A DNA stretch of 64,000 bases from a virus: UHGV virus genome UHGV-0090252; one strand, given 5' to 3'. Numbering within the stretch: the stretch's first letter is position 1; every line of letters starts with the position of its first letter. Below are positions 3,778 to 8,669 of this stretch, piece after piece. The notes under the pieces are model-generated. The model was not told the origin of the DNA and did no database searches. It was given only the letters and a program-made list of their open reading frames with translations. The position numbers and the translations under genes are program-made.

Positions 3778-3853
3778 TGGAGAATCCGAAGGGACTCGAA
3801 CCCTTATAAACCTGTTTTGCAGACAGGCGCATATCCATTTCTGTCACGGATTC
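3778..3853 (-). tRNA. tRNA-Cys (anticodon GCA)
   Basis: perfect 7-bp acceptor stem GAATCCG/CGGATTC, T-loop GGTTCGAGTCC, anticodon loop CTGCAAA, CCA encoded. Confidence 0.8.
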
Positions 3854-3857
3854 AAAT

Positions 3858-3950
3858 TGGAGGAAGATACCAGACTTGAACTGGTACACCGATTTCTCAG
3901 CTACTGGCAGTTTAGCAAACTGCTCCCTTACCTTTTAGGGTTAATCTTCC
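3858..3950 (-). tRNA. tRNA-Ser (anticodon GCU), class II with long variable arm
   Basis: 93 nt; acceptor GGAAGAT/ATCTTCC, T-arm ACCAG-TTCAAGT-CTGGT, anticodon stem GCAGT/ACTGC with loop TTGCTAA, about 21-nt variable arm, CCA encoded. Confidence 0.7.
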
Positions 3951-3951
3951 G

Positions 3952-4686
3952 TTATTTCTGTAATGCGCTCTTCATTTCTGGTGTTGCAATAGTATCAATC
4001 ACACCAGTTTTACAAGCATCATCAAACCAGTCTGGTAAGATACCTGCTAAGAACCCATTGATATTCGTTTTAAGGTACTCTGCAATAAGGGCAGCTTCTT
4101 CTTCAATCATCTGCACAACTTCATCTGCATAAGCTGTAATCTTTGAGATACCTTCATTAATCTTGCTAACAGCTTGATTAGCTAAATCAGAAACAGTATC
4201 AAGACCCTTATCAATAGCATCTTGTAAGTCACTTAACACACCATTAACACTATCTAGTGTACTGTTAATCATGTCAATAGCTTTTTGACCATACTCTGTA
4301 GCAACACCCATAATGCCACTGAATGGTGTACAACCAACTTGTTCTCCTGCTGCACCCATAACATTGGAGTATCCCTTTGCTACCTGCATACGTGATGAAA
4401 ACTCATCAATAGACTTTTGACCGTAGTCTGTTAAGGTCTTAGTAGTTGCTGTAGTACTTGTCAGGCTTGTTGTAAAGCTGTTTAGAAGGACTGTTGTAAG
4501 TCCAGCAGCAACAAGCTTCTCCTTCATTGTAGGGTCTGTTACAGAGCTAATAGAGCTTACAAGTGATGTAGAGGCAGATACGGTTCCACCGAGAACTGCT
4601 GCACCAGTAATAAGTGGGTTAGAAAACCCTTTACCAGTTTTTAAGAGATTAAAAATCTCCTTACCTTGTTCTGTCATCTCTTTCAT
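3952..4686 (-). CDS. hypothetical Ala/Ser/Thr-rich protein
   Basis: ORF track 3952-4749 trimmed to internal ATG at 4686 (MKEMTEQ, AAGG RBS) because upstream part overlaps tRNA-Phe. Confidence 0.5.
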   Translation of the reverse strand: MKEMTEQGKEIFNLLKTGKGFSNPLITGAAVLGGTVSASTSLVSSISSVTDPTMKEKLVAAGLTTVLLNSFTTSLTSTTATTKTLTDYGQKSIDEFSSRMQVAKGYSNVMGAAGEQVGCTPFSGIMGVATEYGQKAIDMINSTLDSVNGVLSDLQDAIDKGLDTVSDLANQAVSKINEGISKITAYADEVVQMIEEEAALIAEYLKTNINGFLAGILPDWFDDACKTGVIDTIATPEMKSALQK

Positions 4687-4702
4687 TAAGCACCTTTGAA
4701 AT

Positions 4703-4779
4703 TGGTAGTCCAGTGGGATTTGAACCCTCTTCTCATGTTTTTCAGACACGCGCTTTAACCATATAAGCTACTTGGACTA
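4703..4779 (-). tRNA. tRNA-Phe (anticodon GAA)
   Basis: acceptor TAGTCCA/TGGACTA, T-loop TTCAAAT, anticodon loop CTGAAAA with stem CGTGT/ACATG. Confidence 0.75.
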
Positions 4780-4784
4780 TAAAT

Positions 4785-4860
4785 TGGGGTGACCTACGGG
4801 ATTTGAACCCGTATAGACCATGTTCACAGCATGGGTCATTACCATTTATGATAAGGCCAC
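4785..4860 (-). tRNA. tRNA-His (anticodon GUG)
   Basis: acceptor GTGGCCT/AGGTCAC, T-loop GGGTTCAAATCCC, anticodon stem CCATG/CATGG loop CTGTGAA, CCA encoded. Confidence 0.8.
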
Positions 4861-4891
4861 ATTTAAGGATTCTCGTAAGAACCCTTAGAAG

Positions 4892-4967
4892 TGGCAGCGG
4901 CATAAGGATTTGAACCTTAATAGGACAGCTTCAGAGACTGTTGCATTGCCAGTTATGCTATACCGCT
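4892..4967 (-). tRNA. tRNA-Gln (anticodon CUG)
   Basis: acceptor AGCGGTA/TGCCGCT, T-arm TAAGG-TTCAAAT-CCTTA, anticodon loop CTCTGAA, CCA encoded. Confidence 0.7.
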
Positions 4968-4972
4968 AAATT

Positions 4973-5043
4973 TGGTACTCCATATCGGATTCGAACCGAT
5001 ACATAACACAGATTTTAAGTCTGGCCTCTCTGCCAATTGGAGT
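4973..5043 (-). tRNA. tRNA-like gene, anticodon loop reads UAA (Leu by anticodon) but D-arm truncated; possible pseudo-tRNA
   Basis: 71 nt; CCA, acceptor and T-arm (ATCGG-TTCGAAT-CCGAT) canonical; anticodon stem only 4 bp with loop CTTAAAA; D region about 9 nt. Confidence 0.4.
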
Positions 5044-5053
5044 AATGGAGCAT

Positions 5054-5129
5054 TGGCGGGGGATGTTGGAATTGAACCAACTTCTTCGATTTCAAAGACC
5101 GAGGTTTTAACCTTGTAAACTAATCCCCT
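5054..5129 (-). tRNA. tRNA-Gln (anticodon UUG)
   Basis: T-arm GTTGG-TTCAATT-CCAAC, anticodon stem TCGGT/ATCGA loop CTTTGAA, CCA encoded; first acceptor pair mismatched. Confidence 0.65.
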
Positions 5130-5137
5130 TTAAATCT

Positions 5138-5695
5138 TTACTTTCTCAGTGGATGAATAAAGAATGACAGCATAACTCTTTCCCTTGAGAATGCTCTTTC
5201 TTCTGGGACAACACTTTTTAGTTTCCATCCAACATAAATTCTCCAGTAAAACTGTTTACCAAAGACTTTAATTGACGGAATAAAAGCGAATAATCCCCAA
5301 GCATTGTTGTTCCACATTAGGAGATAACCTGTCTGATTATCTTCGGGGTCAGAACTTACGTTGATATTACCTTTCCACTTAGTAACATCTTTTACATCTC
5401 TTCCTAATACATGGTAAGAGAAGTTATAAGCTTTGTTTCTCCAGAGCCATCCGACTCTCTGCATGTAGACACCCAGCTTACCAATCTTTCTAATCTTAGC
5501 CCATCTTTTAACGTGACCTTCATCACCATCAATTGGGTTGTCATATGTCTCCATCCATCTGAATCCAAAAGGTAGATGTCCTTTCTTCTCACTGTAGAAT
5601 GGAACTACGAAAGGTGCTAAAATAACTGCTAGGATTGCTGCAATTGGGTCTAGTAAAGCTAAGAAAATCCATGAAGCGTACTTCAAATATCTCAT
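5138..5695 (-). CDS. hypothetical membrane-anchored protein embedded in the tRNA array
   Basis: 185-aa ORF filling the only large gap in the array; hydrophobic N-terminal segment (WIFLALLDPIAAILAVILAPFVVPF); no nuclease motifs recognised. Confidence 0.5.
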   Translation of the reverse strand: MRYLKYASWIFLALLDPIAAILAVILAPFVVPFYSEKKGHLPFGFRWMETYDNPIDGDEGHVKRWAKIRKIGKLGVYMQRVGWLWRNKAYNFSYHVLGRDVKDVTKWKGNINVSSDPEDNQTGYLLMWNNNAWGLFAFIPSIKVFGKQFYWRIYVGWKLKSVVPEERAFSRERVMLSFFIHPLRK

Positions 5696-7433: not shown

Positions 7434-7509
7434 TGGTAGAAGTGGAGGGATTCGAACCCATCGCCTGTCAGATTAAAAGTCTGCCGCATCACCATTCTGC
7501 TACACTTCC
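7434..7509 (-). tRNA. tRNA-Lys (anticodon UUU)
   Basis: acceptor GGAAGTG/CACTTCT, T-loop TTCGAAT, anticodon loop CTTTTAA, CCA encoded. Confidence 0.75.
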
Positions 7510-7768
7510 ATTAAATTATCTTTGTAGATAAGCTACCCAGACTTGCTTAAGGTCTGTAGCGATGTGCCTTTTTGGGTTTAAATCTAGAATTTACCCTTTC
7601 ACCCTTTGTGGTCGCATACTCACAGGTAAGCTTAATAACTTATCTACAAAGATAATTACCAGACCGTTGTTTATCATCTTAAGTGCTACCATTACACCAA
7701 CTCGACCTCTGCCGAGTGAAGGAATCGAACCTTCTCCTTTTCTTTACCGAGAAATAGATTGTTTAAGT

Positions 7769-7796
7769 TTTGCTGTAAACGGTCTTCTGTAAATTT
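7769..7796. repeat. 28-bp spacer element TTGCTGTAAACGGTCTTCTGTAAATTTG, copy 1
   Basis: identical 28-mer also at 8315-8342; diverged copies at about 7859-7883 and 8481-8510. Confidence 0.8.
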
Positions 7797-7940
7797 GTTG
7801 AGCCAGACCAAGTTTTAAATTTTTTCAAAATTGAATTGGCTTGAAAATATCATACGTACTTGCTGTATTTGGTCTTCTGCCCCTTTAAAGAATACTCGTA
7901 AGAACTCTTTAAGGGAGGGGCTAAATAGCCCTCTCAAAAT

Positions 7941-8018
7941 TGGCGGTTACGAAGGGATTTGAACCCTCATCATCTCCCGTGACAGGGGAGTATTTTAACC
8001 AAATTAAACTACATAACC
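7941..8018 (-). tRNA. tRNA-Asp (anticodon GUC)
   Basis: acceptor GGTTATG/CGTAACC, anticodon stem CTCCC/GGGAG loop CTGTCAC, T-loop TTCAAAT, CCA encoded. Confidence 0.75.
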
Positions 8019-8023
8019 TTTAT

Positions 8024-8111
8024 TGGTGTGCCGTGTAGGAGTCGAACCTACCGAGTCTCAATGACAAGGGATTTACAGTCCCCACCGCTACCATCTACGG
8101 GATAACGACAC
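8024..8111 (-). tRNA. tRNA-Tyr (anticodon GUA), class II
   Basis: 88 nt; acceptor GTGTCGT/ACGGCAC, anticodon stem GGGA/TCCC loop CTGTAAA, long variable arm, T-loop TTCGACT, CCA encoded. Confidence 0.7.
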
Positions 8112-8180
8112 ATTTAATTTCTATTCAGGCTAAGGACTTGCACCTTACAAATCGGTGAGCAATCGCTTCTCTCCTAAATT

Positions 8181-8257
8181 TGGCGGTTAGTCAGGGATTC
8201 GAACCCTGTGCCATTCGCTTAACAGGCGACCGCACATACCTTATGTGCTTCCTAACC
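8181..8257 (-). tRNA. tRNA-Asn (anticodon GUU)
   Basis: acceptor GGTTAGG/ACTAACC, T-arm CAGGG-TTCGAAT-CCCTG, anticodon stem TCGC/GCGA loop CTGTTAA, CCA encoded. Confidence 0.75.
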
Positions 8258-8314
8258 ATGTTTAGTATTACCAGACCGTATCTTTCAATTTTTCCGCTAA
8301 AAATTTAATAAATA

Positions 8315-8342
8315 TTGCTGTAAACGGTCTTCTGTAAATTTG
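8315..8342. repeat. 28-bp spacer element TTGCTGTAAACGGTCTTCTGTAAATTTG, copy 2, directly abutting the 3' CCA of the adjacent tRNA
   Basis: exact repeat of 7769-7796; a related copy at 8481-8510 likewise abuts the 3' end of tRNA-Glu. Confidence 0.8.
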
Positions 8343-8417
8343 GAGGCGGGTGCAGGAGTCGAACCTGCCGATACCATGCTAATGAGACATGTGAGACGCC
8401 CTTTCTCTATACCCGCA
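8341..8417 (-). tRNA. tRNA with anticodon CAU (Met, fMet or Ile2)
   Basis: D-stem GAGA/TCTC, anticodon stem CATGT/GCATG loop CTCATTA (U at position 37), T-arm GCAGG-TTCGACT-CCTGC, CCA encoded; first acceptor pair mismatched. Confidence 0.6.
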
Positions 8418-8507
8418 ATTCTTAATGACCAGACCAAATATCTTCTTTGTCCGATTTCGTGTCAGATGAGTAGATTAAGTTTGCTGTAATTGGTCTTCTG
8501 TCAAAAC

Positions 8508-8585
8508 TGGCGTTCCAGAAGGGATTTGAACCCTCAAATATCCACTTTGAAAGAGTGGTGACTTTACCATTTTGTCTACTGGAAC
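8508..8585 (-). tRNA. tRNA-Glu (anticodon UUC)
   Basis: perfect acceptor GTTCCAG/CTGGAAC, anticodon stem CCACT/AGTGG loop CTTTCAA, T-loop TTCAAAT, CCA encoded. Confidence 0.75.
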
Positions 8586-8592
8586 ATTAATT

Positions 8593-8669
8593 TGGTCTCT
8601 GTTGGAGGACTTGAACCTCCGGCCTTACCGCCCCAAACGGAACGCTCTACCAAGCTGAGCTAAACAGAG
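8593..8669 (-). tRNA. tRNA-Pro (anticodon UGG)
   Basis: perfect acceptor CTCTGTT/AACAGAG, T-arm GGAGG-TTCAAGT-CCTCC, anticodon loop TTTGGGG, CCA encoded. Confidence 0.7.

Follow-up and report, generated by a model that had tools for sequence, protein, structure and literature searches.

The long variable arm is treated by textbooks and recent reviews as a hallmark of bacterial leucine tRNA (tRNA-Leu). Here, we analyze a tRNA gene array on the minus strand of the virus genome UHGV-0090252 (positions 3778 to 8669 of a stretch of 64,000 nucleotides [nt], referred to below as the window), in which three tRNA-Leu genes lack this arm and a tRNA-Trp-like gene contains an insertion. Short-armed tRNA-Leu is known from mitochondria and Streptomyces; no report of it from phages or enterobacterial cells was found in the literature searched, older papers on the tRNAs of phage T5 being outside its reach.

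The type I (class I) tRNA-Leu(CAA) of Streptomyces coelicolor resembles the phage family described below in its 5-nt variable loop, the lack of an arm, and its occurrence beside long-armed isoacceptors, and it is charged by a bacterial-type leucyl-tRNA synthetase (LeuRS) of its own (PMC6614811). Unlike this tRNA, those encoded in the window must work with an enterobacterial LeuRS that lacks a type I substrate of its own. Animal mitochondrial tRNA-Leu is also class I, with its identity resting on A73 and A14 (PMC9976931); its D and T loops are degenerate and it is served by a mitochondrial LeuRS dedicated to it, whereas the phage tRNAs have canonical G18G19 and T loops. In addition, engineered Escherichia coli tRNA-Leu without the arm was aminoacylated if A73 and tertiary D/T-loop contacts were preserved (Larkin et al. 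2002, as summarized in PMC9976931). Going by that summary, the features retained in these constructs are exactly those conserved in phage tRNA-Leu, although the constructs were made in the laboratory and the phage genes are natural. Finally, the tRNA region of T5 (NC_005859) is likewise a long tRNA cluster with small open reading frames (ORFs), homing endonucleases, and annotated stable or tRNA-like RNAs, and it has an unusual initiator-type tRNA(CAU) acceptor stem in common with the window. However, the tRNA-Leu(UAG) of T5 is long-armed, whereas that of the window is short.

The analysis shows the structure of the genes, their conservation and covariation, their identity nucleotides, their distribution, and the codon usage, and from these we infer expression, processing, charging, and decoding. 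On this basis, we consider it probable (roughly 0.7) that the atypical members of the array are working tRNAs, the short tRNA-Leu species being charged by the host LeuRS and the Trp-like gene encoding a tRNA-Trp.

Three short-armed tRNA-Leu genes in a Felixounavirus array

Felix O1-like phages infecting E. coli, Salmonella, and Shigella, which belong to the genus Felixounavirus (about 87 kb), have 96 to 98% identity to the 3778-8669 stretch; phage finno and Bas63/JohannRWettstein are examples. The G+C content is about 40%. On this identity, the cluster is assigned to a Felix O1-like myovirus, a Felixounavirus. ARAGORN called 25 tRNA genes between 3778 and 8669, all on the minus strand; together with the Trp-like gene, this bears out the approximately 26 minus-strand genes counted in the initial annotation. 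The Rfam tRNA model recovered 23 of the 25 at its gathering score, while the Tyr gene (8024-8111) and a CAU tRNA gene (8341-8417) matched only the Rfam tRNA-Sec model, below threshold. The called tRNAs represent 19 amino acids, leaving Trp as the sole gap, and the long variable arm is retained in the Ser (93 and 90 nt) and Tyr (88 nt) tRNAs. The array and its three tRNA-Leu genes are as follows.

3778-8669, minus strand: tRNA array with 25 called tRNAs and one Trp-like gene, together with two ORFs and several spacer RNAs that are not tRNAs (ARAGORN, Rfam)
5714-5791, minus strand: putative type I tRNA-Leu(CAA), with a 3-bp D stem, D loop CAAUUGGCAGA, 6-nt variable loop, A73, and encoded CCA (Rfam tRNA, 44 bits)
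4973-5051, minus strand: putative type I tRNA-Leu(UAA), with a D arm as in the CAA gene, 7-nt variable loop, A73, and encoded CCA (Rfam tRNA, 47.5 bits)
6291-6368, minus strand: putative type I tRNA-Leu(UAG), with a variable loop of 5 nt, a weak D stem, a U.U mismatch in the anticodon stem, A73, and encoded CCA (Rfam tRNA, 40 bits)

Including the encoded CCA, Leu(CAA), Leu(UAA), and Leu(UAG) measure 78, 79, and 78 nt, respectively, and each anticodon lies in a 7-nt loop of the form C/U-U-NNN-A. A long variable arm (at least 10 nt with a stem) is absent from all three, and the ARAGORN drawings contain no variable stem. The same program recognized the long-armed controls, Leu(UAG) of T5 (85 nt) and Leu(UAA) of phage Wc4-1 (87 nt). 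The class I shape first proposed from hand folding for the CAA and UAG genes is therefore upheld by the ARAGORN and Rfam calls, with variable regions of 6 and 5 nt. In contrast, the truncated D arm proposed for the UAA gene was an error that arose because its 5' end had been misplaced by 8 nt (4973-5043); the true span contains a 3-bp D stem and an 11-nt D loop (CAAUUGGCAGA), typical of tRNA-Leu. Hand-folding error, one of the explanations offered at the time, thus accounts for this truncation and neither for the class I shape of the Leu genes nor for the extra nucleotides of the Trp-like gene. Standard predictors (ARAGORN; tRNAscan-SE in Felix O1) call the Leu genes with class I folds, rather than giving class II folds or passing them over, so that the oddity survives the refutation test named for it. 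In the Felix O1 paper, tRNAscan-SE gave the same three Leu calls and lengths with Cove scores of 46 to 58, the arm not being remarked upon (PMC3185647), and Mooglevirus records annotated by tRNAscan-SE also label the short genes Leu.

The short form extends well beyond this genus. The putative type I tRNA-Leu genes form a large family, with members in Ounavirinae, in T5-like and rV5-like phages, in many uncultivated phages, and in Actinobacteria. Named phages compare as follows.

Erwinia phage Tian (Kolesnikvirus): three Leu genes, 77 to 78 nt
KookSpook and KPP2018 (T5-like): two Leu genes each, 77 nt
SPLA5a (Seunavirus): two Leu genes, 77 to 78 nt
AhP_Mru1 (Aeromonas Demerecviridae): three Leu genes, 77 nt
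T5 (Tequintavirus): a long Leu(UAG) of 85 nt
Wc4-1 (Pectobacterium Ounavirinae): a short Leu(UAG) and a long Leu(UAA) of 87 nt

A pattern scan of IMG/VR, combining the D-loop sequence AAUUGG, a Leu-type anticodon loop, and a short distance from anticodon to T loop, returned at least 120 loci. Among the 120 matches listed, ARAGORN found tRNAs in 118; these loci hold at least 172 short and at least 53 long Leu genes, with both forms in one locus at least 38 times. Ser tRNAs were long in 102 of 102 cases and Tyr tRNAs in 37 of 40, again among the matches listed. Applied to bacterial genomes, the same pattern gave, among the matches listed, mainly tRNA-Leu(UAA) genes standing alone on the chromosomes of Actinobacteria (Nocardia, Mycobacterium, Gordonia, Arthrobacter, and Bifidobacterium) and members of large tRNA arrays in metagenome-assembled genomes. 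The CCCAAUUGGCAGAGG D arm of the window's CAA and UAA genes recurs in related lone actinobacterial genes among these matches. Since several phage families, IMG/VR contigs, and Actinobacteria hold short Leu genes, the idea of a Felix-specific oddity was rejected. A blastn search of the three window genes against 5,426 complete E. coli genomes gave no match. Derivation of the window Leu(UAA) gene from its long-armed ortholog in the related Wc4-1 was likewise rejected, as the sequences are dissimilar.

A family alignment was made of 131 members that are pairwise less than 85% identical, the three window genes included. Of the cells at cloverleaf positions, 97.8% were paired; the shuffled controls reached 56.7% and slid partners 36 to 45%. 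All 20 cloverleaf pairs showed changes on both sides. Within Felixounavirus, the anticodon stem of Leu(UAG) is wholly different yet perfectly paired, by compensatory change, in finno and SUSP2. The variable region measures 5 nt in 115 of the 131 members. As a separate observation, position 37 is A in 107 members and G in 23, with A37 in many UAG members (CUUAGAA loop). CUN-reading tRNA-Leu usually has G37, the site of 1-methylguanosine (m1G); A37 in short UAG-anticodon tRNAs would alter TrmD dependence and possibly nuclease recognition.

Seryl-tRNA synthetase (SerRS) and the bacterial tyrosyl-tRNA synthetase (TyrRS) need the variable arm and LeuRS does not, so that loss of the arm would be tolerated for Leu only; the long Ser and Tyr tRNAs in the same arrays fit this need. 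The identity elements of E. coli LeuRS are A73, A14, A15:U48, G18G19, and A20a, and to this enzyme the sequence and fold of the arm are irrelevant, an arm-less minimal tRNA-Leu being active (PMC9976931). All of these elements are present in the three window genes. Across the family, A14 and A15 are each found in 131/131 members, U48 in 130/131, A73 in 131/131, and A20a in 128/131; the collecting pattern partly imposed A14, A15, G18, and G19, which counts against giving those four full weight, and did not impose U48, A73, or A20a. G3:U70 was looked for in the three window genes and found in none. With neither G3:U70 nor an arm for SerRS, LeuRS is the only anticodon-independent synthetase left under established identity rules. 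The altered identity that the initial annotation had considered for the Leu genes is thus not supported, the LeuRS discriminator and core nucleotides being kept.

In the ORFs of the window, 23% of Leu codons are UUA, 15% UUG, and 10% CUA (48% together), and only 17% are CUG. In E. coli, CUG accounts for about half of Leu codons. We read the window genes as putative leucine tRNAs charged by the host LeuRS and serving UUA, UUG, and CUA codons. They would be transcribed with the rest of the array after infection, and the transcript would be trimmed by RNase P and 3' exonucleases, with CCA already encoded. Once loaded with leucine by the host LeuRS, the tRNAs with UAA and CAA anticodons would decode UUA and UUG, and that with UAG would decode CUA and related CUN codons. 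UUA, UUG, and CUA would thereby be supplied, being heavily used by the phage, whose G+C content is 39%, and poorly served by E. coli. The lineage would have lost the long arm yet kept the elements read by LeuRS, namely A73, A14, A15:U48, G18G19, A20a, and the 3-bp D stem.

The tRNA-Trp-like gene and its conserved connector

6727-6809, minus strand: tRNA-Trp-like gene, with A1-U72, G73, a CCA anticodon, encoded CCA, and the invariant 9-nt connector GAUGUUAAG

The acceptor stem of this gene has 7 bp, its anticodon loop is CUCCAAA, and its minimum-free-energy fold equals the expected cloverleaf. The connector between the acceptor and D stems (GAUGUUAAG) comprises 9 nt where the canonical geometry has 2 (positions 8 and 9), corresponding to a 7-nt insertion. 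The probable tRNA-Trp with about 6 extra nt at this place, as first described, was therefore recognized correctly. The insertion aside, the gene aligns with E. coli trpT and phage tRNA-Trp, and the 3' strand of its D stem, GAGC, is identical to that of E. coli tRNA-Trp. In finno, G1.U72 replaces A1-U72. Under relaxed settings, ARAGORN folded the gene differently, and its only Rfam match was 23 bits to the tRNA-Sec model.

Trp-like variants were compared across Felixounavirus, Suspvirus, Mooglevirus, Wc4-1, and IMG/VR, and the 9-nt connector was unchanged in all of them. The anticodon stem occurs in four forms (AACGG/CCGUU, GUAAG/CUUAC, GUAGG/CCUAC, and GACGG/CCGUU), a U-A pair of the D stem is swapped for A-U, and a G-C pair of the T stem is swapped for U-A. 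In an alignment of 10 sequences, 98.4% of cells were paired, and six pairs had changed on both sides, compared to none in slid controls. The gene is found in 236 phage records, with no tRNA annotation under it in the rows listed. Outside the Ounavirinae, the insertion was searched for in IMG/VR, where only Felix-like contigs were true homologs and the remaining hits were chance matches to coding sequence.

The features expected by tryptophanyl-tRNA synthetase (TrpRS), the covariation, and the position of Trp as the only gap in the 25 called tRNAs together favor a working tRNA-Trp with a conserved insertion. The gene most likely encodes a phage tRNA-Trp that would supply the twentieth amino acid of the set. 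It is a new structural variant, missed by annotation pipelines.

A Ro60-like gene and the spacer RNAs of the array

Directly upstream of the array lies a gene for a Ro60-like protein, and four unannotated spacers within the array share a common design.

8835-10250, minus strand: Ro60-like protein, 471 amino acids, directly upstream of the array (Pfam DUF2828 and DUF7788)
7659-7789, minus strand: long Y-RNA-like element (YrlA type), with a terminal stem and UUUACAGCAA, followed by the V hairpin, the T arm, a closed acceptor-like stem, and the D arm
8429-8500, minus strand: short Y-RNA-like element 1, with an AGACCAA/UUGGUCU stem and AUUACAGCAA
8271-8334, minus strand: short Y-RNA-like element 2, with an AGACCGU/ACGGUCU stem and UUUACAGCAA
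7803-7879, minus strand: short Y-RNA-like element 3, with an AGACCAA/UUGGUCU stem and AAUACAGCAA

A sequence search of the Ro60-like protein against the PDB gave no match, so that a fold search was needed for the assignment. The AlphaFold model (predicted local distance difference test score, 86.5) matched Ro60/TROVE structures (TROVE plus vWA) over its whole length, and the top 12 PDB matches were all Ro60/TROVE proteins (E values of 3e-8 to 5e-6), including Ro60 of a Thermus phage. DUF2828/DUF7788 homologs occur in 710 phage records, often inside or beside tRNA arrays. The homolog in Bas63, gp130, was reported as Ro60-like and as countering the Ppl defense, and its authors surmised that some of the tRNA genes may be Y RNAs (PMC11482910). 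That the annotated atypical tRNAs are Y RNAs of the Ro60-like protein was considered and rejected, as they do not carry the stem-ACAGCAA signature; the unannotated spacers are the candidates instead.

Each of the four elements consists of AAG, a 7- to 8-bp stem, 1 to 2 nt, ACAGCAA, a variable core, the returning strand, and CUGG. The terminal stems covary between copies (AGACCAA/UUGGUCU versus AGACCGU/ACGGUCU), the three short elements measure 58 to 71 nt, and all four lie 335 to 2,600 nt downstream of the Ro60-like ORF on the same strand. YrlA RNAs have the module order V, T, acceptor-like stem-loop, and D (PMC4201824). The element at 7659-7789 has the same order, with a fold z-score of -2.76, and compensatory changes distinguish its acceptor-like stem in Suspvirus and Mooglevirus. 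Felixounavirus and Suspvirus both keep all four elements and Mooglevirus keeps three or four of them; they are absent from Tian and Wc4-1, the two Ounavirinae loci examined in which no Ro60-like gene is seen beside the array.

Phages of Klebsiella, Vibrio, Mycobacterium, Listeria, and Campylobacter carry the same design beside their DUF2828 genes, and in these flanks, with the four sites of the window counted in, each of the 16 ACAGCAA sites has perfect flanking stems of 6 to 9 bp. Among the 120 IMG/VR loci listed, which had been collected otherwise, the element was present in 14 of 19 with DUF2828 versus 25 of 101 without (Fisher P = 7e-5). The Rfam YrlA model found no match in the window; long copies in Klebsiella phage KP13-26 and mycobacteriophage Nicholas scored 32 to 40 bits (E values of 2e-5 to 3e-3; gathering score, 69). 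As in the YrlA/YrlB and Ro60 system, the elements stand beside a Ro60-type gene, and one RNA has the YrlA-order modules while the others are short (PMC4201824). However, the protein of the window is of the DUF2828 type rather than Pfam TROVE, and the 5' motif is ACAGCAA rather than the GNCGAA of YrlA/YrlB. Taken together, the four spacer elements are likely Y RNAs of the Ro60-like protein, judging from sequence and predicted fold. A 95-nt spacer between tRNA-Thr and tRNA-Val (5868-5962, minus strand) has an AGAGGUC...GACCUCU stem and contains GAAGACCGUAACAA, and it may be a fifth, divergent Y-like member. In Listeria phage cka15, the tRNA region lies upstream of the DUF2828 gene and contains a ROOL RNA match (locus 2428-2979; 90.1 bits, gathering score 99.1), and an RtcB-type "tRNA splicing ligase" gene lies downstream.

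Three of the elements gave subthreshold Rfam matches to the Dictyostelium Class I RNA (RF01414) at 8430-8495, 8272-8329, and 7660-7784 (minus strand), all in one register and with 13 to 20 bits against a gathering score of 41.5. Dictyostelid Class I RNA starts with AAG and has a 6-bp stem, CCUUACAGCAA, about 60 nt, and a 3' CUGU, and it was described as "found in no other organism" (PMC7919456). Both types begin with AAG and have a terminal stem, the UUACAGCAA motif, a similar size, and CUG at the end; in detail, the stem is 7 bp in the window and 6 bp in Class I RNA, the motif is (A/U)UUACAGCAA versus CCUUACAGCAA, the length 58 to 71 versus about 60 nt, and the end CUGG versus CUGU. Homology, convergence, and chance are all possible explanations of this resemblance. 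In a wider and tentative proposal, which we hold to be somewhat improbable as a whole, the array would be an RNA island with Y RNAs of a DUF2828-type Ro60-like protein, and a signature running from 5' AG through a terminal stem, 1 to 2 nt, ACAGCAA, a variable core, and the returning strand to CUG would mark such proteins in at least six phage lineages; dictyostelid Class I RNAs would be Y-RNA-type ligands of a Ro/TROVE-like protein with UUACAGCAA as the binding site; and enterobacterial LeuRS would charge type I tRNA-Leu in nature.

Another spacer, between tRNA-Ile and tRNA-Arg (7029-7275), contains a tag template.

7150-7182, minus strand: tmRNA-like tag frame ANDNVFLAVA*, reading AUAAAU GCA AAC GAC ... 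UGA, in a conserved spacer block at about 7067-7191

The frame has the resume codon and the hydrophobic C-terminal degron of a transfer-messenger RNA (tmRNA). A promoter-like TTGACA-17-TATAGT sequence at 7260-7232, the best of the region, lies ahead of it, although the sigma-70 promoter scan was overall not above chance (17 sites versus 11.1 +/- 3.4). The tag is kept in two unrelated phages, as ANEEMYLAVA* in Klebsiella siphovirus VLCpiS10a and as ANDNTFLAVA* in Serratia phage IME250 (Ackermannviridae), and the differences in template are conservative and synonymous. The Rfam tmRNA alignment covers model positions 56 to 294 only (15 bits, E value of 2.5e-4 on 351 nt), and ARAGORN called a tmRNA only at a relaxed threshold, by borrowing the neighboring tRNA. 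An alanine-type tRNA-like domain (G3:U70, T arm, and CCA) was found in none of the window, VLCpiS10a, and IME250, and a complete tmRNA at 7029-7275 was rejected for this reason.

The remaining members of the array include the following.

8341-8417, minus strand: tRNA(CAU) with a 1:72 mismatch and an acceptor stem as in the annotated initiator tRNA-fMet of T5 (ARAGORN)
7353-7429, minus strand: second tRNA(CAU), elongator Met or Ile2 (ARAGORN)
5138-5695, minus strand: ORF of 185 amino acids inside the array, a conserved phage protein
3952-4749, minus strand: ORF inside the array, a putative membrane protein in finno

The acceptor stem of the first CAU tRNA (UGCGGGU/ACCCGC), its 1:72 mismatch, and U73 are common to the annotated T5 initiator. 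The pair of CAU tRNAs and the two Lys isoacceptors (CUU and UUU anticodons) that had been singled out at the start were confirmed by ARAGORN, and both pairs are ordinary. The listed GTG start of the 3952-4749 ORF overlaps tRNA-Phe, and the true start is therefore probably further downstream. At about 7880-7925, 4865-4890, and 7030-7065 (minus strand), spacers between tRNA genes contain strong, recurrent hairpins built as CUUUAAAG...UUCUUACGAGAA...CUUUAAAG, the loop being of the UACG type, and these may serve as signals for processing or termination. Elsewhere in the window, an Rfam group I intron match was found at 42180-42477 (minus strand; 55.1 bits, gathering score 50). No introns were reported in Felix O1 itself (PMC3185647). 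In other phages, the array of KP13-26 has an annotated "tRNA-Pyl" (locus 3510-3584) and additionally carries a short-armed Leu gene and a Ro60-like gene, and that of AhP_Mru1 has an annotated "suppressor tRNA" (locus 797-875) with the anticodon UCA according to ARAGORN.

Weighing the explanations of the atypical genes

Several observations weigh against working tRNAs charged by the host. The weak D stem and U.U mismatch of Leu(UAG) are irregular, and the 6- and 7-nt variable loops of Leu(CAA) and Leu(UAA) are outliers in a family dominated by 5 nt. The Trp-like gene is called neither by ARAGORN at default settings nor by the Rfam tRNA model at its gathering score, contains the mismatches A10.C25, C31.A39, and A49.C65, and carries a 9-nt connector for which we know of no precedent in an elongator tRNA. 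In Bas63, a close relative, the tRNA genes were mostly nonessential in four laboratory hosts (PMC11482910). Furthermore, in the one experimental study of a short-armed tRNA-Leu from bacteria, E. coli LeuRS was reported to fail in vitro on the Streptomyces type I tRNA-Leu(CAA), leading to the statement that it "only charges type II" (PMC6614811). That substrate has C48 (ACAGC loop), whereas the phage family has U48, and the failed charging may therefore not transfer; in addition, A73 is no identity element for the Streptomyces LeuRS, whereas it is invariant in the phage family.

An alternative that we regard as unlikely is that the Trp-like RNA, and possibly Leu(UAG), would be non-translational tRNA mimics, serving as decoys for or ligands of the Ro60-like protein, a modification enzyme, or a nuclease. 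Rejection of the Trp-like gene by standard tRNA models is consistent with this, as is a connector more conserved than the stems, as expected for a binding site. The array also holds other tRNA-like non-tRNAs, such as the YrlA-type element, and the annotation of the tRNA region of T5 lists "tRNA-like stable RNAs of unknown function." However, the Trp-like gene keeps every TrpRS determinant and an encoded CCA and does not carry the stem-ACAGCAA signature of Ro-associated RNAs. No other tRNA of the otherwise complete set decodes Trp, and close homologs of Leu(UAG) in T5-like phages have good D stems.

A role in anti-defense appears quite unlikely as the reason for the shape. Decoding would then proceed as in the preferred explanation, and the difference would lie in selection, the Leu arm having been removed and the Trp tRNA remodeled to escape host tRNA nucleases and replace destroyed host tRNAs. 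There is a precedent in Retron-Eco7, whose PtuAB cleaves the variable loop of E. coli tRNA-Tyr; a phage tRNA-Tyr in which this loop is different escapes and neutralizes the system (PMC12673091). That tRNA also has a variable region unlike the host's, with functional consequences, but its loop is longer and its anti-defense role is demonstrated, whereas the Leu loops of the window are shorter. Type II tRNAs are targeted by human SLFN11, the array adjoins a Ro60-like gene whose Bas63 homolog counters Ppl, and many UAG-anticodon family members have A37 (CTTAGAA loops) where G37 is usual. On the other hand, no nuclease aimed at the arm of bacterial tRNA-Leu was found. Many Actinobacteria have this short form as a single gene on the chromosome, a setting in which evasion does not suggest itself as the driver, and the IMG/VR loci noted above (at least 38), as well as Wc4-1, keep long and short Leu genes together.

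Decaying pseudogenes or prediction artifacts, to which the low score (40 bits) and mismatches of Leu(UAG), the uncalled Trp-like gene, and the listing of two other array members as "pseudo" in the Felix O1 paper (PMC3185647) might point, are very improbable and were rejected, along with the pseudo-tRNAs suggested in the initial annotation, because compensatory double changes across relatives maintain every stem of the Leu family and, in the Trp-like gene, those of the D, anticodon, and T arms, and because the genes are as well conserved between genera as the neighboring tRNAs, with the insertion invariant.

Three conserved short-armed tRNA-Leu genes are found in hundreds of genomes of coliphages and Salmonella phages, in which we know of no LeuRS gene, and E. 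coli genomes have none of these tRNAs. Felixounaviruses are used in Salmonella typing and phage therapy. Either enterobacterial LeuRS charges the short tRNA-Leu, which would revise the conclusion of PMC6614811 and provide a natural minimal substrate for the study of identity, or something else is at work. The spacer RNAs would give the defense-countering Ro60-like protein concrete candidate RNA partners, and abundant dictyostelid Class I RNAs, if the wider proposal is true, would gain a candidate mechanism as Ro/TROVE-like ligands. Annotation pipelines systematically miss a conserved, probably functional Trp tRNA in this phage group, and the loss of the arm in Leu only, beside long Ser and Tyr tRNAs, would represent a natural experiment on the need of synthetases for the variable arm.

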